A DNA stretch of 64,000 bases, from positions 1,214,459 to 1,278,458 of the forward strand of contig CM000435.1 of the NCBI GenBank assembly GCA_000165345.1. Reading direction: 5' to 3'. Below the pieces are notes generated by a model. That model was not told the DNA's origin, did not search any database, and worked only from the letters and a program-made list of their open reading frames with translations. Positions 9,989 to 64,000 of the stretch are shown here, piece after piece; within the stretch, counting starts at the first letter, position 1, and each line of letters starts with the position of its first letter. The position numbers and the translations under genes are program-made.

Positions 9989-11635
9989 TCAATTCCATGA
10001 TAAAGACTGATTTCCAGAATTGATGTAACTTGGAATACTTGAACAGGAAATGCTGAAAATAAAATTGTTAAACTCGTGGTTTAACTGATCAAACCTAATT
10101 TCAATACTTTTAATTTTATTGAAAGCATATTCTCTAGATTCGCTCATCAAATTTTTATTATCAATTACAGCTTCTCTAGATTTGATTCCATAGAGCTCAA
10201 CAGACTGCCTAAGCTTTTCCATTCTTTCAATAAACTGAGCATATCCAGAATTAGAAATGACAGGCTGCAAGACTGAAATTTGGTCATTGTCTGTTACAAC
10301 AAATTGATTTGCTACCTCTGATTTCTTGGCTTTTAAGCTTTGACTATGTAAAATTAAAGCACTTTCCATGTACTGAATCTCTTCTAAAAGGGACTTATAT
10401 GTAATCTCGTTTGCTGTTCCGTGTACAGTAAAGGATGCAGGTGAGGTCGCCATGAACATGTCCATAATACCAACAAGCTGGAGTTGTAATTCACTCATTT
10501 CTTGCTTAAGTAGTTGAATATCCTTATTTGTAGACTCTAAACTACTTGGCTGTGGATAAAATTCTGAATCACTATCTTCAACAAAACTCTCCTCTGTAGG
10601 TGTTTTATTTGAACCTGAATTAAAGTCCCCATTAAAATACTTTACTTTTCCATCCTGATCAATCAAAACTTTTCCTTCGAGTATTTTGTCCTTATTTTTT
10701 GTGAGAAACTCCTTTAGATAATCCTTTCTCTCCTTTAATCTATTGAGAAGGTATTTATAATCTGTAATACTACTCGAGTGTTTGACAAGTAAAGGACCAT
10801 CTAAATTGGCATCTTCGGATTCATTCAATCCTAAAATTTGGTTTTCAACTCTATCAGCATTTTTATTCTTATTAATACCTTCATCATCACCAATTAATAA
10901 TGATCTAATAGACCTGCAACCTTCTGGAAGTTCTAAATCTCTCAAAATGATGTTATTTAGCGCATAACATAAATTTTTGGAATCTTTAATTTTTTCAATT
11001 AAACTATTTGCTAAATACATATGGGAAAGAGGTTTCATATTCCACCTATCAGCATAAATAAAAAACATCATTACTGCAATATTGTTCCAATCTTCATCAA
11101 TATCATAAACGCTTTTATCTTCAACAGGTGAAAACGAAAAGATATTCCATACTTCCTTTTCTTCCTCTGCTTTATAAAACTTATCTTTATTTCTAAAAGT
11201 TGAAGGATTTACTACATCCAAGTAAACTGTTAAATTCTTCATAACTTCATATATTGAGCTAGTTTTAGTATTTAAAGTTACTAATATTATTCCGGTACCA
11301 GATGATTGAACTGCATTCAGGTCTATTTTTGCTCTTGGGAAATATCTTTCAATATCTGAGCTAACGCTAACACACCCGTCAAGTGCAGGATTGTCTGGAT
11401 TAGTTACACAGTCAATAAATTCTCCGATACTATCCATCATCCAAACATTACAACTTACATCTTCAGGAAGCTTCCAGTTATCGTAATCATCATTATTGGC
11501 TTCTTCAGGAAAAATTTGTGATCTTTCAAATCTAACAATGATAACTTCCCCTGCATATTTAGGTATTCCGAACCCTCCATGTGAACTATAATGCTTCAAT
11601 CTCCCTGTTTCATTTTCTGTGATAAGCTCTGTCAT
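9989..11635 (-). CDS. Hypothetical protein with C-terminal coiled-coil region
   Basis: 548-aa ORF with no internal stops and an E2F-like box upstream at 9903. The C-terminal third is heptad-like (LKQEMSELQLQLVG...). No family recognised by eye. Confidence 0.55.
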   Translation of the reverse strand: MTELITENETGRLKHYSSHGGFGIPKYAGEVIIVRFERSQIFPEEANNDDYDNWKLPEDVSCNVWMMDSIGEFIDCVTNPDNPALDGCVSVSSDIERYFPRAKIDLNAVQSSGTGIILVTLNTKTSSIYEVMKNLTVYLDVVNPSTFRNKDKFYKAEEEKEVWNIFSFSPVEDKSVYDIDEDWNNIAVMMFFIYADRWNMKPLSHMYLANSLIEKIKDSKNLCYALNNIILRDLELPEGCRSIRSLLIGDDEGINKNKNADRVENQILGLNESEDANLDGPLLVKHSSSITDYKYLLNRLKERKDYLKEFLTKNKDKILEGKVLIDQDGKVKYFNGDFNSGSNKTPTEESFVEDSDSEFYPQPSSLESTNKDIQLLKQEMSELQLQLVGIMDMFMATSPASFTVHGTANEITYKSLLEEIQYMESALILHSQSLKAKKSEVANQFVVTDNDQISVLQPVISNSGYAQFIERMEKLRQSVELYGIKSREAVIDNKNLMSESREYAFNKIKSIEIRFDQLNHEFNNFIFSISCSSIPSYINSGNQSLSWN

Positions 11636-12083
11636 TTTTTTTTAAAAGCTCTTTTATATTAATATTATTTAAAATATTTTCATTTAACTAGAGATCTTAA
11701 TTCGCTTAGTTCATATAGCATGGTACTTTACGTTACGTATCTACGTGTTATACCAATATTGTTCATAACTAACAGTTACCTGCAAAATAATCTTAATTAA
11801 AAGAAATTTAAATTGAAAATATTTAAGAAAAACAAATATTATATCTAAAATCACTTTTAAAAAGATAATAGTAAGTCGATATTCACTTTTATCGCAACCT
11901 AATACAAACATTAAACTCCACTTCAAAATGATAAGTTCTAAAAATGTAGGCTATATATATTAATGCTTTAAATTTCAAAAATCCTATGTAATATAGTTGA
12001 AAATCTGAATAGATTTGGATAAGATCTTTTATCAAAACTTGAATCAATTTTTCAAATGCTTATTTTTGAACTGACTACAATAG

Positions 12084-12126
12084 TGCATGCAAGGCAGCGC
12101 CAAATCACACGAACGCTGTTGGCGCC
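12084..12126. promoter_or_regulatory. TGCATGCA box plus paired E2F-like boxes (GCGCCAAAT ... TTGGCGCC)
   Basis: TGCATGCA at 12084-12091, GCGCCAAAT at 12097-12105 and TTGGCGCC at 12119-12126. Intergenic between the 11635 minus-strand gene and the small plus-strand ORF at 12319. Confidence 0.55.
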
Positions 12127-12318
12127 TATTTGAAACAAATTTGTGTGGTTTTTGATATAAATGTAAGATGAAAAAGAAAATGTATTTTTTTTCATTTTTT
12201 TTCGCAAGTTAAGGTAGGATTATCTTTTGTAATATTTTTAAATTACTTAGGTTGATAGAATGTTTCTCTTTTTTGTAACTTGACTAACTATTAGAGCATA
12301 AACTCTTTTAAAGTAGAA

Positions 12319-12543
12319 ATGTACAGAAATGAAATATTAAGTAATTTCTCCTCTAGATTGAGAATTATGTATCGCTACTACGAGAATAGATGGAATGAGC
12401 TTATATACAAACAAAATGATGATTTGGTAATGATTCTAAAAGAATATAACTTGAAAATAAAACGTGTAGCAAACAACCAAGGAAAAGGGATAGTTAAAAA
12501 AATAATGTTTTGTGAGCCTGATATAAAAAGGAATATAATTTAA
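12319..12543 (+). CDS. Possible small protein (74 aa), unassigned
   Basis: Clean ATG ORF about 190 nt downstream of a paired E2F box (12097-12126) in an otherwise empty 650-nt intergenic gap. No homology recognised. Confidence 0.25.
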   Translation: MYRNEILSNFSSRLRIMYRYYENRWNELIYKQNDDLVMILKEYNLKIKRVANNQGKGIVKKIMFCEPDIKRNII

Positions 12544-12689
12544 ATAAACTTGATTCTACAGAAAGAGCGTTTTCTATCATCAAGTACAATTTTCTAAAGT
12601 TGGGAAAAGCAATACATAATTTAAAATAACTTGGGTGTTGGAAATAAATAGTATTCAAGAATTGAATAAAAATAATCCAAAACCTTTAT

Positions 12690-12986
12690 TTAAGAATCTG
12701 AAATCTTTTGCCTCTTATATACTTGTTGGTCTTTCTCAAAGTTTTGAGTCAAATCTTCATATCCCTCTCCTACCATTCCAATACAATCGCCACGTAAAAC
12801 AAGAGACTCCATACTTACAGTTTCTACTTTGTTCAGATCTTTATTATATATCTTTTCAAAGCAATTTTGTAATACTATATTTGTTAGCTGATCGAACCCT
12901 ACCAAATTCCCAACATATACTTTGTTATCAACTGTCAATACGCTCACAGTCTTGTTGATAAACTGTTCTAATGTAGAACTATTCAT
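12690..12986 (-). CDS. LSM8: Sm-like protein LSm8 (U6 snRNA-associated)
   Basis: 98 aa. LEQFINKTVSVLTVDNKVYVGNLVGFDQLTNIVL...VETVSMESLVLRGDCIGMVGE matches human LSm8 LENYINRTVAVITSDGRMIVGTLKGFDQTINLIL...VEQVVLGLYIVRGDNVAVIGE. Confidence 0.8.
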   Translation of the reverse strand: MNSSTLEQFINKTVSVLTVDNKVYVGNLVGFDQLTNIVLQNCFEKIYNKDLNKVETVSMESLVLRGDCIGMVGEGYEDLTQNFEKDQQVYKRQKISDS

Positions 12987-13314
12987 CTGCTAATTCTAAA
13001 AGTTGGTAAAAAGTATGCAAATAATTAATAAGGACCAATATAAATATATATATTTATATAGATCAGTTTGCCAATGTATTTTGGAATCCTAATTTTTTTT
13101 AAACCTTGAAAGTAACTGGAATAATTGAAACAGTCAGTTCAAAAATAGAAAATCCTAAGGCATTGTCTAGCCACGTATTTAAGATGAATTCTTATTTAAT
13201 ATATTGTTAACAAATAAATTTCCTTGAAAAATAATTTTAAAATAATTTTTCTGGTCTCATTCTACCGACATCAATGGACCCTCATCTTGATACCGGTTTT
13301 TGACTATGAGTGCA

Positions 13315-13325
13315 TTTTGGCGGGC
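13315..13325. promoter_or_regulatory. E2F-like box TTTTGGCGGGC
   Basis: Intergenic between divergent LSm8 (minus, ATG 12986) and the 13613 plus-strand gene. Confidence 0.5.
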
Positions 13326-13612
13326 TTCGGGAATAATTTATTTATTAAGCTGATGAAAAAATTAGTATACAAATAATTTAGATTACTGTGAGTTTGAAAG
13401 AAAATTTTCGGTATTATTTGTTCTCACTGGAAAGAAGATACAATCTCTTGAAGGTATAAAGTAAAAGTCCCTTATATTCGTATTAATAATAAGTGGCTCA
13501 TAAAGCCATTAATAATAAATTTAAAAATACGAAATTTATGTGAGAATATAAGTAATAAACCTTTAAAGTGAGGGAGAAAGAGGTAGGAGTTTATCATATT
13601 GAGTACAAAACC

Positions 13613-15586
13613 ATGTATGTGGGCTCTCAGAAGAAGAATGGAGTTGTGGAATTAGAACTTGTGGGAGAAATTCCAAAAACTGAAAGGTTAGATACCGATG
13701 TAAACTCTCCCGTTTCATATGATGATTTATTCGAAATTATACCAAATTCTAGAGGAAGAAAACGCAGTAATGAGCTGAAGATTGATATACCTGAGGACTT
13801 AAACTCTCAGATGGCCGAACTTCTAAAATTTTGTGGTATTAATGAATTTGATGATGAGGAACCCTTAAATTCGGAAGAAAACAATAAGCAATCAAAATAC
13901 AATAAGGACTCTAAAAATGATAAATTACTTAAAGCTCACTCTATAGGTCCACCATTCTTAGTCAGATTAATGAGGTATAATTTACTGGAAAATAAGTTTC
14001 CTAACTTTTTTGATTTTGGGGTAAATTTAACTTTGCCTGCTTCTTTTCAAGTCTCTGAATATCGCCTTCTAAAGACAGTTCATCCCAGAGATAATCCATG
14101 GTACAAAGGTTGTAATAAACTTATTTTATTGGGGATCCCTTCATCTTTACGTCCAAATGACTTGAAGGAAATTATCCTATCTTTTGCTAATAAACCAGGG
14201 TGTAATTTAAAGATCAGAGAAACAGAAGTTGAAAATTCTAGCCCAGATTTGAAGTCTTCATCCCAGAAGTCCTTCTCAATTACAGAGTTGGGTATAAAGA
14301 ACTTCACAAATTTGTTTACAACAGAAAATAAAGGCCACTACTTAAATAATTTATATCAGCCTTCTGGAGCATTGGTAAAGAGTCATATGAATATGGCAAT
14401 ATTAGAATTCCAAGAAGAAGAAGATGCATTTGAATTTTGGGTGGCGTTAAGTACCGGACTATTTCAATGTTATGGAAGCGTTTTAACAGCAATTCCTGAC
14501 CCTTCTGGAAAGAGAATTCTTGCCGAGGGAATGTTAACGGTATTTTCCCCAAAAAACATTCCACTTATGGATTCTATTGAATCTTTTACAAAAAATATTC
14601 TTCAAAAGAATTATCAAAACTCAGATGAAGTAGAACTTGTTTTATCTTTTCCACTTATTGGTTCATCACGTTCTATTGATACTTTAAAAAATGAATTAAT
14701 TCAAATATTTAAAGATTTACCAGAATCTGACAGTTATGTAATTGAAGAAACTGTATACTGTCTAACTATACGTTCTAAGACTCAAAAAATCATGGAACTA
14801 ATTAACAATCGGCTTTTTCAACTTTGTACTTTCAAACTGACTTCAGAATCCGATCAGATGAATTTTATGGATGAGAATAATCAAATTATAAATACTGCAA
14901 TGTTTATTTTCAAAGACAAAATTTGTGAACCTGTAATAATTCAAGGGAATTATGATATTCATCCAATAAAGCACCGTACAATTGAGCTTTCAAGCTTTAA
15001 TAAAAAGCACGAAAAGAACTCTAAAGTCAGTTTTTCCTCAGTAAACCAGAATGATCAAGACACAGAGCCTGTTGGGTTTCTTTTCAAGAAATTTGAGGAA
15101 TTAAGAGAAGCTCTTCAGCATGGGCTAGCACCAATCTCTACAAACTCCGGAGACCAGAACATTAATTCTGACCAAAATGGTTCAAATAACGCTAAGAGAT
15201 TGCTTAGAACCCCTTCAGAAGTTTGTTCAATTGGTGACTCGAATTCTTCGCAAATAGCATCTAACACGATGAATGCTATCAACAAGAAACTTTCTGGAGT
15301 CCAAATAGATGGACCATTAAAGAATGAAGAAGAAAATTTCGTACAAGAATATCCAGATTCGCATTATAGACGCTCAAATAATAGAAAAAGAGCTCTCGAA
15401 AGTTTAGATGAGGATCCTGAACTTCCATTAGGTTCAAATTCTGACAATAGAAATGTGAACGGGTCAAATAAAGATGAAACACAAAGATCTGAAAACAATA
15501 AAGCTGAGAAATCTACAAGCAAGAGGAAAACCTCCGTTGAACTACCCAGGAAAAACATTAAAAGTAGCTCATCTAGGAGAGACTAA
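13613..15586 (+). CDS. Hypothetical protein (possible RRM-like segments), Ser/Asn-rich C-terminus
   Basis: The ORF track opens at GTG 13568 and the first ATG is 13613. The ~657-aa frame is uninterrupted. Segments such as ILLGIPSSLRPNDLKEIILSF and AILEFQEEEDAFEFW look RNP-like, but no firm family call is possible. Confidence 0.5.
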   Translation: MYVGSQKKNGVVELELVGEIPKTERLDTDVNSPVSYDDLFEIIPNSRGRKRSNELKIDIPEDLNSQMAELLKFCGINEFDDEEPLNSEENNKQSKYNKDSKNDKLLKAHSIGPPFLVRLMRYNLLENKFPNFFDFGVNLTLPASFQVSEYRLLKTVHPRDNPWYKGCNKLILLGIPSSLRPNDLKEIILSFANKPGCNLKIRETEVENSSPDLKSSSQKSFSITELGIKNFTNLFTTENKGHYLNNLYQPSGALVKSHMNMAILEFQEEEDAFEFWVALSTGLFQCYGSVLTAIPDPSGKRILAEGMLTVFSPKNIPLMDSIESFTKNILQKNYQNSDEVELVLSFPLIGSSRSIDTLKNELIQIFKDLPESDSYVIEETVYCLTIRSKTQKIMELINNRLFQLCTFKLTSESDQMNFMDENNQIINTAMFIFKDKICEPVIIQGNYDIHPIKHRTIELSSFNKKHEKNSKVSFSSVNQNDQDTEPVGFLFKKFEELREALQHGLAPISTNSGDQNINSDQNGSNNAKRLLRTPSEVCSIGDSNSSQIASNTMNAINKKLSGVQIDGPLKNEEENFVQEYPDSHYRRSNNRKRALESLDEDPELPLGSNSDNRNVNGSNKDETQRSENNKAEKSTSKRKTSVELPRKNIKSSSSRRD

Positions 15587-51405: not shown

Positions 51406-51474
51406 CTAAATGTAAACGAAAAAAAAGAGGTTATTAATCAGTAATTATAACGTCTGCATTATTATTAAACTTAC

Positions 51475-56738: not shown

Positions 56739-57458
56739 ATGAATAATTTCATAAATGAGATGTCAATCAAGTTAATATACAAAGCTACTAAATACATATT
56801 TATTTACATGATTTTTGCTTTACTTTTAAAAAAACTAGAAGATAATAGTCATAAAATATCTTTTGATTCGAACTTATCGCTTATAAAGGTTCTAAACTCA
56901 TTCGAAAATTTACAAATAGATTTAATGGAAGACCCAAAAGACCTAAAATTAGCTATTGATACTGAAGACATAAATCAGCCTGATATTTCTGAAAAAAATA
57001 ACTCAACATATGTTTCTGATAAATTGGATGCTCATTTAGAAGCTGAAAATGACATAAATGAGAAAGTGCGTGTTCCCAAGATTCAATTATTATCTGAAGT
57101 AAACTTAGTATTAATTGGTCAAGAATCAAAGTCTGAAACTGAATCTCCTAAAAGTAACCAAGATGACGCAGAGAAGTATGAGCCATCCAATCAATTTAAT
57201 AGAGAAGATCTAGAAAATCACATTTCAAAATTAACGAAGAAAGTGAAGAAACTTCTCAAAGAGCTTGAAAGGGTTGAATTCATCGTGAATTTATATTCAA
57301 AGGCATTTCTTTCGGATTCAAGCATGAGTAATACGATAAAATATATTAAAAAATATGAGTTTCTAAAAAAATGTCATCAAGAAAATCTAGAATTACTTAG
57401 TAAAAAGAAAGCGGAATTAGATGAATATCAGAAAATGTTGTCTAAAACCGGGATTTAG
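56739..57458 (+). CDS. Hypothetical small protein with N-terminal hydrophobic anchor and C-terminal coiled coil
   Basis: 239-aa ATG ORF in an AT-rich gap. Hydrophobic YIFIYMIFALLL near the N-terminus. C-terminal heptads KKVKKLLKELERVEF. Weak support only. Confidence 0.3.
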   Translation: MNNFINEMSIKLIYKATKYIFIYMIFALLLKKLEDNSHKISFDSNLSLIKVLNSFENLQIDLMEDPKDLKLAIDTEDINQPDISEKNNSTYVSDKLDAHLEAENDINEKVRVPKIQLLSEVNLVLIGQESKSETESPKSNQDDAEKYEPSNQFNREDLENHISKLTKKVKKLLKELERVEFIVNLYSKAFLSDSSMSNTIKYIKKYEFLKKCHQENLELLSKKKAELDEYQKMLSKTGI

Positions 57459-58115
57459 AATTTATTACAATATTCTATTAATTATTTAAGAAAGCTAATA
57501 ATCTAGTTGAAAAAATAATTAATCTTTTTTTTTTTTTAAATACAATTTTTTTTCAGTTATTAAGGCTTAAATTTTCCGTTATACTTTTGCAAATCTTTTG
57601 CCAAACGTTAATTTATTCACCTTAAATTGGTAAAGATATTTTGTAATTATCTTATTTTTAAAGCATGCACAAATATTTTTATATCGAATTAAAAAAATTC
57701 AATATAGCAATCAAATATTAGCATTTAAAAAAAATTAGCTCAGAAATAGCGATCTTTGATTAAGAACTTTATCCTATATTTGAATAATTAAAGTTTGATC
57801 CAGCTCTATTCCAAACTTTACAACTTCCCAAATATGTCATTTTTGTTTTTCTTACCACTTTAATCTTCTTCAATTTTGTGTTATCGAATGGGATTATCAA
57901 AGTAAGCAAATATCCCTTTATTCGGCATCTTACAAATTATTAGAAAGTATTTTGAAACAATAATTAACAATACAACTAAATTTCAGAAAATCACTTGATA
58001 TGCCTACAAAATCCTAATTATTTTTATTTAAATAAACTATCAATATGAATTTTACTTGAGTTGACAATTTAGATATTTGGAAATGGCTAAGGCCATATTT
58101 ATCAATGCAGATACT

Positions 58116-60973
58116 TTACATTTTGTTTCTAATTTCTTTCGAAGTATCTTCAATAATGTCATTTTTAGTGATTACTTGCTCACCATCAACCATTTTATCC
58201 TTTTCCCCATAACTTTCCACATCTGCCAGCTTGCTGGAAAGATTGGGTTGATTTGGAAGATTTAGTGTATTAAAACTCGAATTACCTTCCTGATTATTAT
58301 GATTTTCATTTTCTTGGTTAGGATATGTAGCTGGCTTTGAGTTTTGTTCTGTAGAAGTGATTGGTAAGCGTTCTGAGTCCAATCCTTCTTCTGGAGAAGT
58401 AGCAGGAGTGTGATCTGAGCTGGATCCTGTTTCTGGTATAGTAGCAGAAGGATGATTTGAACTTGATCCAGTCTCTGGAATTGTCACAGGCGCGTGATCT
58501 GAGCCTGACCCGGTCTCTGGAATCGTCACAGGTGCGTGATCTGAGTCTGATCCAGTCTCTGGAATAGTAACAGAAGGATGATTTGAACTTGATTCAGTCT
58601 CTGGAACTGTCACAGAAGGATGATTTGAACTTGATCCAGTCTCTGGAACTGTCACAGAAGGATGATTTGAACTTGATCCAGTCTCTGGAATAGTAACAGA
58701 AGGATGATTTGAACTTGATTCAGTCTCTGGAACTGTCACAGAAGGATGATTTGAACTTGATCCAGTCTCTGGAATAGTAACAGGCGCGTGATCTGAGCCT
58801 GACCCGGTCTCTGGAATCGTCACAGGTGCGTGATCTGAGCCTGATCCAGTCTCTGGAACTGTCACAGAAGGATGATTTGAACTTGATCCAGTCTCTGGAA
58901 TAGTGGCAGGATGATCTGAACCCGAATCAGTCTCTGGTTTAGTAACAGAAGGATGGTTTGAACTTGATCCAGTCTCTGGAATAGTAACAGAAGGATGATT
59001 TGAACTTGATCCAGTCTCTGGAATTGTCACAGGTGCGTGATCTGAGTCTGATCCAGTCTCTGGAACTGTCACAGAAGGATGATTTGAACTTGATCCAGTA
59101 TCTGGAATTGTCACAGAAGGATGATTTGAACTTGATCCAGTCTCTGGAATAGTAACAGAAGGATGATTTGAACTTGATTCAGTCTCTGGAATTGTCACAG
59201 AAGGATGATTTGAACTTGATCCAGTATCTGGAATTGTCACAGAAGGATGATTTGAACTTGATCCAGTCTCTGGAACTGTCACAGAAGGATGGTTTGAACT
59301 TGATCCAGTATCTGGAACTGTCACAGAAGGATGATTTGAACTTGATTCGTTTTCTGGTGAGGTAATAGGGGCTTGCTCTGAACCAGATTCTTGATGTTCA
59401 CCATTTGAGGGCTTTTCTGTAGGATGCGGTCTAACAACTGGATGAGGCTTTGTGTTTTGGTTCTGAGTTAAGTTATTCCCACCTGATTCTGGATTTGTTG
59501 AGTTTAGTGGCTTCATTATTTCATTTTGAATATTTTGATTTTCTTGATTATTCAAGTGGCCATTTTCTTTTATAGGCGCATGTTTAATTAAAGAAGAAGA
59601 AAATCCATCGATAATACTCCAATATCCAATTGTGGAGATTGAGTTTTCTCCGGCTTCAAGAGAAATTTTGTTGATTTTATTTGTGTTAATTGGAATATAT
59701 CCAAGAATGCAGTTATTCCATGTAAGGAAAAGATAATATTCAGAATTAGAAGATTGGAGAGTTGTCGCTAAGTCTTTCTCAGAACCAAAAGTCATTTTAT
59801 TCTCAGCGCGATTAAAGGGTTTAAGACAATGTGCTTCATTCTTTTCAAAACATGTTTTTGTATAGAAAACACAAGCGATTGAATAACTTACAGCTTCAAG
59901 AGCGTGTTTCCTATCAAGGATAAAAATATCACCTCCGAGCCAACTACCATTTATCAAGCCAAGCTCAAATTTAATTTCGAATTTAGTAGAAATGTTTTTC
60001 AAAATTCCGGATCCATCTGGATTTAAAACAAATAATGACTTTGCATCGTTTGAATCAAAGAAACTAATTGAAATAGGTAAAAGATCAGTTCTTGGAACAT
60101 TAAATCCAAATCTTAAATAATTTCCCTTAGTTAGACCGCCATAATACGGAATTAAAACAACATTCGATTTGCACACATTCATTGCTTCAGAAATACTGCA
60201 AACATTATTTGATTTAGAAAGTGCTAGCATTTCATTGTTAATTTTCATCGCATCATTGACTGATATTTTGTCGCCATTATTTGTACCATTCTTATAATTC
60301 CCAGCAAAAAGAATAATTTTCGAGTGGGTATTATCAAATAAATAACTGGAACTTTCATCCCAGTATAATGAAAGGTTTATTTTTGTTGAATTTGACCATT
60401 CTTCGGGTATTTGAGAAATGCTAGATATTGTAGAATCGTTGTCAAATAAACTTACTTCATTGTCATTCAACCAAAGAAGCATTTGTTTTTTCAAGTTTGT
60501 TGTGCCAAATAAGTTAGAAACGAGCATTGGAATATTCCTAAAATCGTTCCTCTTAATAGTAAAATTGATTAACCCTTTAGAACCATTAGTTATTCCAGAA
60601 TTTTCATTATGAAAATTTAAATTTGGGCAATTTTTACTGTTTATATTAAATACAGTACCATTGTGAGATAAAACTGAAAAGATTTTATCACCATGCCCAT
60701 CTGGGGAATTAAGGCCCAAATTAATATTCGATTGGCCTGAATGTTTATCTTTGGATTCGGAGAAATCTTCATCTAAAACTTGTTCCATGGAATTATTTTT
60801 TAAATCTATTTCTTTCTCATTTGATGAAAAATATTCACTAGTAGTTTTCGTACTAGTAGTAGTTTTCGTACTAGCAGTAGTTCTTGTAGTAGTAGTAGTT
60901 CTTGTAGTAGTAGTAGTTCTTGTAGTAGTAGTAGTTCTTGTAGTAGTAGTAGTAGTAGTAGGGATTTTCATAA
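58116..60973 (-). CDS. Mucin-like glycoprotein, exon 5 of 5 (Thr-rich stalk, ~450-aa domain, then ~24 tandem 15-aa S/T/P repeats)
   Basis: 951 codons. The exon opens with (TTTTTR)n, then a Cys-containing Asn-rich domain, then repeats of SSSNHPSVT(I/V)PETG(S). It ends with an Asn/Gln-rich tail. The acceptor ATATTTAG lies 2 nt upstream of the MKIP... codon at 60971, so the exon is entered in phase 1. Confidence 0.8.
58380..59370 (-). repeat. In-frame 45-nt tandem coding repeats (~22-24 copies) of the mucin gene
   Basis: Repeated ccagtctctggaa(t/c)(a/t)gtcacagaaggatgatttgaacttgat units with point variants. They encode the SSSNHPSVTIPETGS units. Confidence 0.85.
60845..60963 (-). repeat. 18-nt ACT/AGA-codon repeats encoding (TTTTTR)n
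   Basis: gtagtagtagtagttctt tandem units on the plus strand at the 5' end of mucin exon 5. Confidence 0.8.
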
Positions 60974-61019
60974 CTAAATATTTAGTTAAATGATAAAAAA
61001 TTTAAAAATATTGACTTAC

Positions 61020-61140
61020 TAAATTCGCTTCTGTCTGTAAGTGTCCATTTGAATTCTTCATCTAGTAAAGTAGTGTTGAAAAAAGTGGGTTCTACTCCAA
61101 ATTCCTTTGTTTTGAAAATAAGACTATCTGGCCTATTAAA
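61020..61140 (-). CDS. Mucin-like glycoprotein, exon 4
   Basis: Encodes FNRPDSLIFKTKEFGVEPTFFNTTLLDEEFKWTLTDRSEF. It is flanked by intron 61141-61188 (GTAAGTGAGCC...CGTTTTTAG, 48 nt) and intron 60974-61019 (GTAAGTCAA...ATATTTAG, 46 nt). Phases are 0 in and 1 out, matching exon 5. Confidence 0.6.
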
Positions 61141-61188
61141 CTAAAAACGGTTATATTTCATTCAAGAAGTTTTCTGTGGCTCACTTAC

Positions 61189-61283
61189 CATATAAAGTGA
61201 GAATTCATCATTGTAAAAATCAAAAGTAAATGAACAAGGATTTTGATTTCCAGGTTTTGCTATTTTATCGCTAGAAACAGAGT
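61189..61283 (-). CDS. Mucin-like glycoprotein, exon 3
   Basis: Encodes (Y)SVSSDKIAKPGNQNPCSFTFDFYNDEFSLYM. Acceptor AAATTTAG|AC in phase 1. Donor TATATG|GTAAGTG in phase 0. Confidence 0.55.
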
Positions 61284-61336
61284 CTAAATTTATGGGATTA
61301 GAATCCATAAGTTAAATGGGTTACAAGTAAACTTAC

Positions 61337-61778
61337 ATAACTTTGAACCACAGGAAATTTGGATTTGCTTTGTGATAGGGTCGCATCTTATATTACCTTC
61401 TTTATTATGTATATCTTTTCCGCAAGGAAATATATATTCAAATTCATTTGAAAGGTTTAGCGGAGCGATGGAATTTAAGATGTATTGCTGAATTACATGG
61501 TTAGAATAATTCACTATGAGTAGATTGTCACTAATACATGTAAGTTGTGAACTAAAAGGAATTATTTCACAAACGTTACTCTCAACTGAACCCATTTTCA
61601 AAAGAAAAAATATCAGGAAGTCAGAGAAATAACTACTTTTTGTTGTATGAGAAAATTGCACACAATAGCATGTGATTTTTTTTAAGTTGTACCCAAAGGT
61701 TATGTCTTTTAACAAAAAAAATTGTAATGCAAAATTCAAGTGTGAAAATATCGTTATAATAGCACATAGAATGGATAG
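61337..61778 (-). CDS. Mucin-like glycoprotein, exon 2 (signal peptide plus Cys-containing N-terminal domain)
   Basis: Begins after acceptor TTATTTCTGCAG| with LSILCAIITIFSHLNFALQFFLLKD... It has no in-frame ATG before its hydrophobic start, so it needs exon 1. It ends AAGTTAT|GTAAGTTTAC in phase 1. Intron 2 is 61284-61336 (53 nt). Confidence 0.55.
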
Positions 61779-61839
61779 CTGCAGAAATAATTAGTTTTCT
61801 GTGTTCAGTTTTTCTTAATATTGAATTTATTAATTTTAC

Positions 61840-61848
61840 ATTTTCCAT
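61840..61848 (-). CDS. Mucin-like glycoprotein, micro-exon 1 (ATG GAA AAT)
   Basis: ATG at 61848 followed by donor AAT|GTAAAATTAA. The 61-nt intron 61779-61839 ends at CTGCAG. Joining gives MEN-LSILCAIITIF..., a signal-peptide-like N-terminus. Confidence 0.45.
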
Positions 61849-62489
61849 TTTTGAGAAGAAAAATCAGGTATTTTAATTTATTAAGTTATTATTTTACATA
61901 GGTTCTTGATAATATTTAGTCGTATTATTATAGATTTAGACGAGAAATTCAAACCTTTAATTTATGTAGAAATGAAATAATAATATGTCAAGCCTTTATT
62001 TTATCTGATCTAATATTTTATAATATAAAAGTTGTGAATTAATTTTTTTTTAAAATTAATTTAATAAATATTTACTAGAGGTATGAAGAGTCAAATTAGT
62101 TGGTTTATACTGAGTTCAAATTTATACAATATATTTTCACAAAGACGAAATATATAAGTAAATTTGGTGAAATATGTAAATAACATTTTATATATAGATA
62201 TTCAATATTTATAGATAATTATTTTTTTCAAGTAGAAGATGATTATAGTTAAAGATATGGAAATGAATGGGATGAATAAGAACAGAGATATGAATATAGT
62301 GAAAGTGGAGAGAGGTAGTGGAAAGAAAGAGTTTAGAAGAGGATGAGGATAGGGGTGGTTGTGGAGAAGATAAGTAGAATAGTAGTAGAGTATTCATAGG
62401 AGGAGAAATGGTGATGAGAGTAGCAGAATAGGAAATGAGAGATAATTAGATAAAGAATGGCATTAACTTGAATGTTGAAAAAATAATTT

Positions 62490-62795
62490 TTGAATTTTTT
62501 TTGGATTGTTTTTTTTTGCACTTGAATTTTTTTTGCACTTGGATTTTTTTTGGATTGAGTTTTTTTGCACTTGAATTTTTTATACTTGATTTTTTTTGGA
62601 TTGAGTTTTTTTGGATTGTTTTTTTTTGCACTTGAATTTTTTTTGTACTTGGATTTTTTTTGGATTGAGTTTTTTTGCACTTGAATTTTTTATACTTGAT
62701 TTTTTTTGGATTGAGTTTTTTTGGATTGAGTTTTTTTGCACTTGAATTTTTTTTGCACTTGGATTTTTTATACTTGATTTTTTTTTTTTCATAAA
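62490..62795. repeat. T-rich ~110-120-nt tandem sub-repeats (~2.7 copies) in the spacer upstream of the 18S rRNA gene
   Basis: The motifs ttggattgagtttttttgcacttgaattttttatacttgattttttt and ttggattgtttttttttgcacttgaattttttttgcacttgg recur at 62505, 62612 and 62712. The Lys-rich minus-strand ORFs here are translation artefacts of the repeat. Confidence 0.7.
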
Positions 62796-63559
62796 GTAAT
62801 TTTTTTTAATGGAATGTTGAATAATATTTTAAATAGCAAAGTGCTAAATTTATAAGTAAAATAATAATATAATAAATAAAGTATTAGAATTAAAAAAAAA
62901 AAAAAAAAAGTGGGCGGTGTAACATAGTGAAAATAAAAAAATAATAAAAAATATTTTTTCCGGGGTGAAGAGTATTCAACCTGGGAATGTAGGAACTGAC
63001 GTGTTAGTAGTGAGCTGACATTGAGTATTAAAAATTTGTAGTCTATTTCGATTTGAAAAGGCTATGGAATGATTAGTACTGATGAGAGAAATATATTATA
63101 GATGAGTAATGTATAATATATGAGTCGCAGGTAAATACATGTTTTTACGATTGAAATATAACGTTGTTTTATATTTGATTGTAAATGTAGTGTATTTAGT
63201 GTAGTCAATTTTGACAATATGTGTTGAATTGATATTTACACGAATGTTAAATATAAGAGGTTGTTGTATTATTATGGTTTCCAAAGAATTATATGTGATA
63301 AGTATTAATGTATGACTCTACATTGTTATATAGTAGTTATGTTGTTTATATATATTTATATGTATATATATGATATATATATTATTGTATAATGGTGTTT
63401 TGGGAGCGTACAATGTTGGAATATTTCGTAACCATTGTTGAAAAGAAAAAGCAATAATTTTTTATAATATATTATTATTATTATTATTACTTTATATTCA
63501 AGGTTATGGGGTATTTTTCAATGTAGTTTTAATACTATCTTAAATTGCTAGTTAAATTA

Positions 63560-63842: not shown

Positions 63843-64000
63843 AACCTGGTTGATCCTGCCAGTAGTCATATGCTTGTCTCAAAGATTAAGCCATGCATGT
63901 CTAAGTATAAACTTTTATACGGTTAAACTGCGAATGGCTCATTATAACAGTTATAGTTTACTTGATATGTTTACTAGGGTACCGAGTCCGAATTCGTAAC
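63843..64000 (+). rRNA. SSU (18S) rRNA, 5' end (partial; gene continues beyond the window)
   Basis: AACCTGGTTGATCCTGCCAGTAGTCATATGCTTGTCTCAAAGATTAAGCCATGCATGTCTAAGTATAAACTTTTATACGGTTAAACTGCGAATGGCTCATTATAACAGTTATAGTTTACTTGATA is the universal eukaryotic 18S 5' end. It differs by about 1 nt from Cryptosporidium 18S over this stretch. Confidence 0.9.

Follow-up and report, generated by a model that had tools for sequence, protein, structure and literature searches.

A three-intron gene for a Ser/Thr-rich protein at the end of Cryptosporidium parvum chromosome 7, and the signal peptide missing from its conserved model

Introduction

Where does the gene for the long, Thr- and Ser-rich protein at the distal end of Cryptosporidium parvum chromosome 7 begin, and does the beginning supply the signal peptide that a protein of this composition would be expected to carry? 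The question is raised by a stretch of 64,000 nucleotides (nt) with a G+C content of about 30% (positions 1,214,459 to 1,278,458 of contig CM000435.1, GenBank assembly GCA_000165345.1), hereafter the window; all coordinates below are positions in the window, and the gene lies on its minus strand. An earlier note on this DNA had described a five-exon mucin gene with a 9-nt first exon, four introns and a signal-like N-terminus. Comparison with sister species partly confirms that description: as far as sequence can tell, the long open reading frame (ORF), the repeats and three of the introns are real, and the part that would have been new, namely, the micro-exon, the fourth intron and the signal peptide, fails the comparison.

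Four coding exons and three short introns

The gene, as judged from conservation among species, consists of four coding exons separated by three canonical short introns, starts at a conserved ATG at 61595 and encodes a product of 1110 amino acids (aa). Coding exon 1 (61337..61595, minus strand, 259 nt) opens with the ATG at 61595-61593, reads from MGSVESNVC... to ...GSKL and ends in phase 1. Intron A (61284..61336, minus, 53 nt) is followed by coding exon 2 (61189..61283, minus, 95 nt, ...YSVSSDK...NDEFSLYM), intron B (61141..61188, minus, 48 nt), coding exon 3 (61020..61140, minus, 121 nt, FNRPDS...TDRSEF, again with a phase 1 end) and intron C (60974..61019, minus, 46 nt), all three introns having the form GTAAGT...TTTAG. 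The last exon (58116..60973, minus, 2858 nt including the stop codon at 58116-58118) holds the 951-codon ORF from which the earlier note started and which is found at 58116..60971, beginning with MKIPTTTT. Removal of the three introns, which lie in phases 1, 0 and 1, fuses segments of three different frames into a single ORF.

The three GTAAGT donors that had been noticed upstream of the 951-codon ORF on the same strand are indeed there, starting at 61336, 61188 and 61019. The minus strand of the 64-kb window contains 18 GTAAGT hexamers, which gives about 0.09 expected per 323 nt, so that three of them inside a span of 323 nt form a cluster beyond chance (Poisson P(>=3) ~1e-4, by our own arithmetic).

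The evidence that carries the model is comparative. A first homologue search gave only two C. canis proteins, and the orthologous loci were reached via the neighbouring genes, in C. parvum (GCA_035232765.1), C. tyzzeri, C. meleagridis, C. hominis, Cryptosporidium chipmunk genotype I, C. canis and C. felis. The three introns occupy identical positions in all 7 species, with donors GTAAG(T/C) and acceptors YAG, and the three-intron model is open throughout, yielding products of 1110, 1094, 993, 954, 826 and 943 aa, in addition to the annotated C. felis protein of 748 aa. Across the 7 species, the intron lengths range from 46 to 53 nt and change by insertions and deletions (indels) of -1, -2, +1 nt and other sizes, without codon-position bias: intron A also occurs with 52, 51 or 50 nt, steps that are not multiples of three, and for intron B, the length is 46 nt in C. 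meleagridis, as against 51 nt in both C. canis and the chipmunk genotype. The codon at the intron C junction is ATT, GTT or TTG depending on the species, in agreement with the annotated C. canis protein. In the exons, variable sites accumulate at the third codon position (29/19/61 for the first, second and third positions in exon 1, 12/8/22 in exon 2 and 12/11/25 in exon 3), and the indels are confined to multiples of three in exon 1, amount to -3, +6 and +6 nt in exon 2 and are absent from exon 3 among 6 species. Because the positions are conserved, the exons are third-position-biased with triplet indels and the intron lengths change in non-triplet steps, the three short introns are, on this comparative evidence, real. 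The start itself is conserved: MG(S/A)(V/T)ES(N/S)(V/I)C opens all 7 orthologues, with G2, E5, S6 and C9 invariant, and synonymous changes (GGT/GGC/GGA, GAG/GAA) occur inside MGSVES between species.

This three-intron gene model is already known and is present in the best public annotation. In assembly GCA_035232765.1 (CP141124.1), the DNA of which is identical to the window over 57500-62790, the gene is annotated at 11378..14857(-), which corresponds to window positions 58116..61595; the product has 1110 aa, and the introns sum to 53+48+46 = 147 nt. The annotated models of C. canis, C. felis, C. meleagridis and the chipmunk genotype also have three introns and an MGS/MGA start, and the annotated C. 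canis protein P0050 starts with MGSVES and crosses the same junctions. In other annotations, the gene is split or shortened. The C. hominis assembly GCA_045269125.1 (locus L016, 16317-19748) divides it into a 935-aa product starting with MKIP... and a 96-aa product starting with MGSVES..., the C. tyzzeri annotation (locus L014, 16286-18793) has only an 835-aa gene, and the old C. parvum Iowa II annotation includes an exon 1 read-through product of 101 aa, EAK90503.1/XP_628696.1, that runs into intron A. Once the three conserved introns are taken into account, the split or shortened models of C. hominis, C. tyzzeri and old C. parvum all become full-length ORFs. The earlier note warned that an unspliced annotation would miss the signal peptide; what such annotations do lose, in C. 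hominis, C. tyzzeri and Iowa II, is the N-terminal domain, and a signal peptide is not supported. The practical value of the result is annotation hygiene, given that several public Cryptosporidium annotations split this gene in two. The view that a multi-intron gene is exceptional in this genome is overstated because ~10.8% of C. parvum genes carry introns, the number of exons in such genes running from 2 to 10 and averaging 2.6 (PMC4637869).

The upstream stretch evolves as non-coding sequence

The five-exon description adds to this gene, on the minus strand, an exon extension of 183 nt (61596-61778), an intron of 61 nt (61779-61839) and the 9-nt micro-exon (61840-61848). The complete string does assemble into a product of 1174 aa, as had been predicted, with the N-terminus MEN-LSILCAIITIFSHLNFALQFFLL, which is hydrophobic (Kyte-Doolittle mean over 19 residues, KD19, 1.84), and the 64-residue extension would yield tryptic peptides such as DITFGYNLK, ITCYCVQFSHTTK and SSYFSDFLIFFLLK. 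These 64 N-terminal residues are what sets that product apart from the GCA_035232765.1 model, from which the three-intron structure described here does not differ.

Alignment of 520 nt upstream of the ATG across the related species indicates that the added stretch does not behave as an exon. Within 61596-61778, the variable sites are spread evenly over the codon positions (35/37/36), and the net length relative to C. parvum changes by +11 nt in C. hominis, +2 in C. tyzzeri, +2 in C. meleagridis, +11 in the chipmunk genotype and -12 in C. canis, through indels of 1, 2, 4, 5 and 6 nt. The C. parvum frame is open for 65 codons above the ATG at 61595, compared with 31 in C. hominis, 30 in C. tyzzeri, 5 in C. 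meleagridis, 6 in the chipmunk genotype, 4 in C. canis and 20 in C. felis, in-frame stops closing it in each of these six; the long C. parvum frame is the result of two indels that set this species apart from every other one in the alignment. Four species, C. hominis, C. tyzzeri, C. meleagridis and the chipmunk genotype, have a broken reading frame between the proposed acceptor and MGSVES. At the position of the micro-exon, C. meleagridis has ATG TAA, and an equivalent is missing from the chipmunk genotype, in which no ATG is aligned there, and from C. canis and C. felis; the ATG or the donor is lacking in the chipmunk genotype and C. canis. Finally, the proposed fourth intron has the form GTAAAA..CAG, whereas the three introns of the gene and the intron of a Prp18-like neighbour, the four verified introns in a 17-kb stretch, all begin with GTAAGT.

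Because the upstream stretch is without codon bias, carries non-triplet indels and has no conserved frame, the micro-exon is rejected, together with the intron proposed after it and the signal peptide. Of the four introns of 46-61 nt that had been put forward, those of 53, 48 and 46 nt, which restore the frame and are conserved in 7 species, stand, and the unconserved 61-nt GTAAAA intron falls; the product shrinks from 1174 aa to the conserved 1110. The segment 61596-61848 is judged from its mode of evolution to be upstream non-coding sequence, either 5' untranslated region or promoter, its open frame being an accident confined to the C. parvum lineage. Short blocks at about 61650-61720 (minus strand) are kept even in C. 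canis and C. felis, namely, (A)GACAT..TTGGGTGCA(C)AAC and CATG..TGTGTG(C)A(A/T)TT, and another conserved block, GGAAA(A)TGT(A/C)AAATTAAT(A/G)AATT, overlaps the proposed micro-exon. These blocks may be promoter or transcription-start elements.

Protein layout and relatives

The splicing joins an N-terminal Cys domain to the product of the 951-codon ORF, as had been proposed; this domain spans 160 aa and contains 6 conserved Cys, the count of 6-7 given before being reduced to 6 once the unsupported extension is left out. Each of the 7 orthologues has exactly 13 Cys. The domain is followed by a Thr-rich stalk (60839..60961, minus), in which (TTTTTR)n, correctly recognized in the earlier note, gives way to TTASTK and TTTSTK; Tandem Repeats Finder reports a period of 18 nt and 6.4 copies at 60839-60953. 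The length of the stalk depends on the species: C. felis has a short one and C. canis none. The central region (59580..60641, minus, 354 aa) is Cys-containing and beta-rich. The C-terminal array (58411..59346, minus) consists of 22.4 copies of a 42-nt unit that encodes 14 aa, SSSNHPSVT(V/I)PETG, rather than about 24 copies of a 15-aa unit, and both the sequence of the unit and the copy number differ between species. This region contains 25% Ser, 14% Thr and 14% Pro, and dense Ser/Thr(/Pro) tracts of the kind that fit clustered O-linked N-acetylgalactosamine (O-GalNAc) are present in the stalk and in the 14-aa repeats. The C-terminal tail is again conserved, ...DTS(K/T)EI(R/K)NKM occurring in 6 of the 7 species, as IIEDTSKEI(R/K)NKM in five and as ILKDTSTEIRNKM in C. 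felis; the chipmunk model ends short. Some lineages depart further from the common layout. In C. canis, the array is built on another unit, about 20 aa long (NPIKDNTENTGNSESLPSEK), and there is an acidic, Asp/Glu-rich tail segment; in the annotated C. felis protein P0052, the first ~140 residues of the central region are missing and the repeat is of the type PRPHPVVNNTE.

A Pfam scan of the N-terminal and central domains at E <= 1 gave no match, nor did a search of the PDB sequences with a profile of the central domain. The same profile, run exhaustively with HMMER against 1.84 billion representatives, retrieved four relevant relatives: the orthologues of C. canis and C. felis, one Logan fragment and, from C. 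hominis, a paralogue. Two further matches below E = 0.001 are weak and short. Within the reach of these searches, the central domain is Cryptosporidium-specific. The paralogue P0053 (C. hominis PPS93119.1, 306 aa, E = 5.6e-10) matches only the C-terminal half of the central domain; it has a hydrophobic N-terminus, MNLTIAWTTAMIYLIISSTLVPLAG, that could be a signal or an anchor, and shares with the family four invariant Cys in the arrangement C-x8-C and C-x6-C. A medium-confidence structural model suggests that the central region resembles galectins and is made of one or two galectin-like beta-sandwiches; an AlphaFold2 (AF2) model from 3 sequences, with a predicted local distance difference test score (pLDDT) of 44.7, was left out of the fold search.

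The terminal gene of chromosome 7

The window is the distal end of C. parvum chromosome 7. Seven of its long ORFs are identical to C. parvum chromosome 7 proteins, for example, EAK90498.1, 'very large membrane protein', and the gene next to the one considered here, at 56739-57458, is an exact match to EAK90501.1/XP_628694.1. On the other side, the window closes in the 5' end of an 18S rRNA gene (63843-64000, plus strand; Rfam SSU_rRNA_eukarya, 125 bits), which is cut by the window end and makes the gene the terminal protein-coding gene of the chromosome. About 2.2 kb lie between the gene start at 61595 and the ribosomal DNA (rDNA) unit at 63843, the two being oriented divergently on either side of an AT-rich spacer of about 2 kb with a G+C fraction of 0.23. 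An rDNA/subtelomeric region at the 3' end of chromosome 7 is known (bioRxiv 10.1101/2021.01.29.428682).

The protein collection contains no exact match to the product of 951, 1110 or 1174 aa, nor to the orthologues from C. hominis, C. tyzzeri, C. meleagridis and the chipmunk genotype. The order of the accessions would place the 951-aa ORF at XP_628695, that is, cgd7_5520, and together with the description 'end of chr 7', it indicates that the gene is probably cgd7_5520 plus the old cgd7_5530. The product would then be the one that current annotation of C. parvum calls 'Hemogen'; its C. canis and C. felis counterparts go by the name 'serine/threonine rich low complexity protein'. Rearrangement between strains is reported for a 'Hemogen gene' situated at the end of chromosome 7 (bioRxiv 10.1101/2025.05.20.655157), and the entry for cgd7_5520, 'Hemogen', in a secretome table reads 'Predicted as microneme protein', a second-hand assignment as far as that entry goes (PMC12604037).

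Other features of the neighbourhood can be recorded briefly. A neighbouring gene with a Prp18/PRP4 domain contains a 69-nt GTAAGT...TTTAG intron (51406-51474, minus); the bacterial-style list of ORFs shows only its 319-aa 3' exon, and the annotated product has 348 aa. Beyond the gene start, an AT-rich tandem repeat at 62494-62785 (minus), with periods of 15, 49 and 110 nt, reads as a Lys-rich ORF at 62580-62792 (MKKKKSSIKNPSAKK...), which is annotated as a 71-aa gene in GCA_035232765.1 (locus L003, 15842-16058) and resembles a repeat artefact more than a gene. Just past this repeat, the window and GCA_035232765.1 diverge, with single-nucleotide polymorphisms from 62791 and an indel near 63203.

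What the protein may do

The account that we favour combines the terminal position of the gene, the three introns and the layout described above with a proposed function, and we consider it, taken as a whole, to be probably correct. The product would be an apical-organelle, microneme-associated protein of the adhesin or escorter type acting in the invasive stages, a role proposed because of the second-hand microneme prediction for cgd7_5520. A predicted lectin-like or partner-binding beta-sandwich would be displayed on extended Ser/Thr-rich segments, which, provided that the protein passes into the secretory pathway, would be densely modified with O-GalNAc; an alternative route to the membrane would be N-terminal acylation, which is suggested by the invariant MGxxxSxxC. 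Consecutive Thr runs are densely modified with O-GalNAc in the C. parvum proteins Gp20 and Gp900, and nearly all O-glycopeptides of the same study come from four O-glycoproteins, among which the product of this gene is not found (PMC5549699). On composition, the label 'mucin' appears plausible; the absence of a signal peptide from the conserved model leaves the topology of such a protein unexplained. The hydrophobic, signal-like N-terminus of P0053 and the paired Cys argue for a lumenal or extracellular domain.

Several points weigh against this account. The 5' end of the gene rests on the comparison and on existing annotations, which may have been copied from one another. In C. parvum taken alone, an upstream frame open over 65 codons is unlikely (P ~0.004 by dinucleotide shuffles). 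The galectin-like fold comes from a 5-sequence AF2 model with a mean pLDDT of 57.8, and the Pfam galectin family is unmatched. The equation with cgd7_5520 derives from accession order and the phrase 'end of chr 7' rather than from a database record that was read. Lastly, the 13 conserved Cys, the Thr stalk and the signal-bearing paralogue all predict a signal peptide, and the conserved model has none.

Alternative explanations

The alternative that survives best accepts the annotated gene model and denies that the protein is a lumenal or extracellular mucin. Gly2 would be N-myristoylated and Cys9 palmitoylated, to give an acylated N-terminus (acyl-)GSVESNVCEIIPF, and the protein would be bound from the cytosolic side to membranes of the apical organelles or the pellicle, in the manner of Cp23 or acylated APH/ARO-type proteins, its Ser/Thr tracts being unglycosylated or carrying nucleocytosolic modifications. 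The invariance of G2, E5, S6 and C9 in 7 species is what recommends this possibility. MGxxxS/T is the consensus of N-myristoyltransferase (PROSITE pattern PS00008), and, at the level of a motif, the N-terminus matches that of such proteins: it starts with Met-Gly, position 3 is occupied by a small residue and position 6 by Ser/Thr, a Cys is close by, and a signal peptide is absent. A hydropathy scan detected neither a signal-like nor a transmembrane segment in the 7 orthologues, the maximal 19-residue Kyte-Doolittle mean being ~1.0-1.2, and acylated proteins on organelle surfaces would presumably co-fractionate with the organelles in spatial proteomics. There is also a precedent in Cp23, which is without a signal peptide and has been found by mass spectrometry to be N-myristoylated and S-palmitoylated (PMC5549699). 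However, the homologous Cys domain of P0053 follows a signal peptide or anchor, the invariant C-x8-C and C-x6-C pairs and the predicted galectin-like sandwich are typical of extracellular domains, and in secreted C. parvum proteins, Thr runs similar to those of the stalk are known to carry O-GalNAc (PMC5549699). Moreover, C9 may be one of the six disulfide-forming Cys of the N-terminal domain, and the motif is loose enough for the probability of a chance match not to be negligible. On balance, we treat a cytosolic, acylated protein as possible and hold to it only tentatively.

A variant of this idea keeps the adhesin and changes only its route: an adhesin-like protein that truly is without a signal peptide in all Cryptosporidium species would reach the micronemes or the surface by dual acylation or another unconventional pathway. 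This appears to us slightly more doubtful still; if true, it would be the second, and much larger, case after Cp23 of signal-peptide-independent display of a sporozoite antigen. The route taken by a Ser/Thr-rich protein with a microneme prediction, and the question of whether it is a lectin, are of modest relevance to Cryptosporidium invasion ligands and vaccine antigens.

The next alternative holds that the MGSVES start is wrong or incomplete and that an unannotated 5' exon or an unconventional mechanism provides a signal peptide, for example, through a non-canonical intron, a lineage-variable leader exon or a hydrophobic in-frame segment resembling an upstream ORF (uORF). It would account for secretory-type features in a protein without a signal peptide, and hydrophobic stretches do lie ~170-180 nt above the ATG in three lineages: in C. 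felis (locus L018, 1656-1715), a 19-codon hydrophobic uORF, MGVVICLINIFICTYLNLG*, in frame and 177 nt above the ATG; in C. meleagridis, a 26-codon hydrophobic uORF, MLIITIFSHLSFASHFF..., at -172; and in the C. parvum group, LSILCAIITIFSHLNFAL. The similar distances may be a coincidence in T-rich DNA or reflect a conserved uORF position; hydrophobic peptides are expected by chance from T-rich upstream DNA. Single-intron models of the type ATG + GT(A/G)...AG with an in-frame hydrophobic start were enumerated by brute force over as much as 740 nt of upstream sequence; C. hominis and C. felis offer none, and the remaining species have no solution in common. The C. felis uORF was rejected as an exon because three in-frame stops come after it and the first of them is reached without a GT donor, and the C. 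felis gene lies only ~570 nt from its upstream neighbour. Another candidate, a 5' intron GTAGTT...TTCAG of 51 nt that ends 10 nt inside the coding sequence, loses its GT in the chipmunk genotype and offers no in-frame hydrophobic start. A hidden leader of this kind is, we believe, unlikely.

The weakest alternative, the five-exon model itself, with its start at the ATG at 61848 and the hydrophobic N-terminus plus 40 residues placed before MGSVES, would explain the missing signal peptide, and ATGGAAAATGTAAAA and TTTCTGCAG occur also in C. hominis and C. tyzzeri, but it is used by no public annotation and, with the broken frames and the C. parvum-specific indels described above, is very improbable, so that this appealing fix should not be adopted.

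Comparison with known systems

The favoured account, a terminal three-intron gene for an apical-organelle adhesin- or escorter-type protein, places the product next to three kinds of known proteins. Compared with galectins, the predicted fold is not accompanied by the family profile (Pfam Gal-bind_lectin, PF00337) or by an evident H-x-N-P-R / W-G-x-E-x-R sugar-binding signature. Sequence identity to galectins and to galectin-fold domains, including those of the Toxoplasma gondii proteins MIC1 (galectin-like domain, 2k2s) and M2AP (8j64), is 10-16%, the likeness being a predicted one. MIC1 and M2AP carry signal peptides.

Cp23 (cgd4_3620) resembles the protein in having no signal peptide, a Met-Gly start with a nearby Cys, a low-complexity, antigen-like character and presence in invasive stages (PMC5549699). 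It differs in being small, acidic and Cys-poor, with its Cys at position 3, whereas the protein described here has 1110 aa, 13 conserved Cys, folded domains and an acylation that is predicted from a motif.

The Cryptosporidium mucin-like glycoproteins Gp900 (cgd7_4020), Gp40/15, Gp20 and CpMuc show no detectable homology to the protein outside low-complexity regions. Gp900, Gp40/15 and Gp20 start with signal peptides, to which Gp900 adds a transmembrane segment (PMC5549699), unlike the present protein, in which the hydropathy scan of 7 orthologues found no signal of the kind by which the Gp900/Gp40/CpMuc class enters the secretory pathway. What it has in common with this class is the general design, with Thr runs, long Ser/Thr/Pro repeats and a repeat number that varies between species, and, likely, an association with the apical organelles or the secretome.

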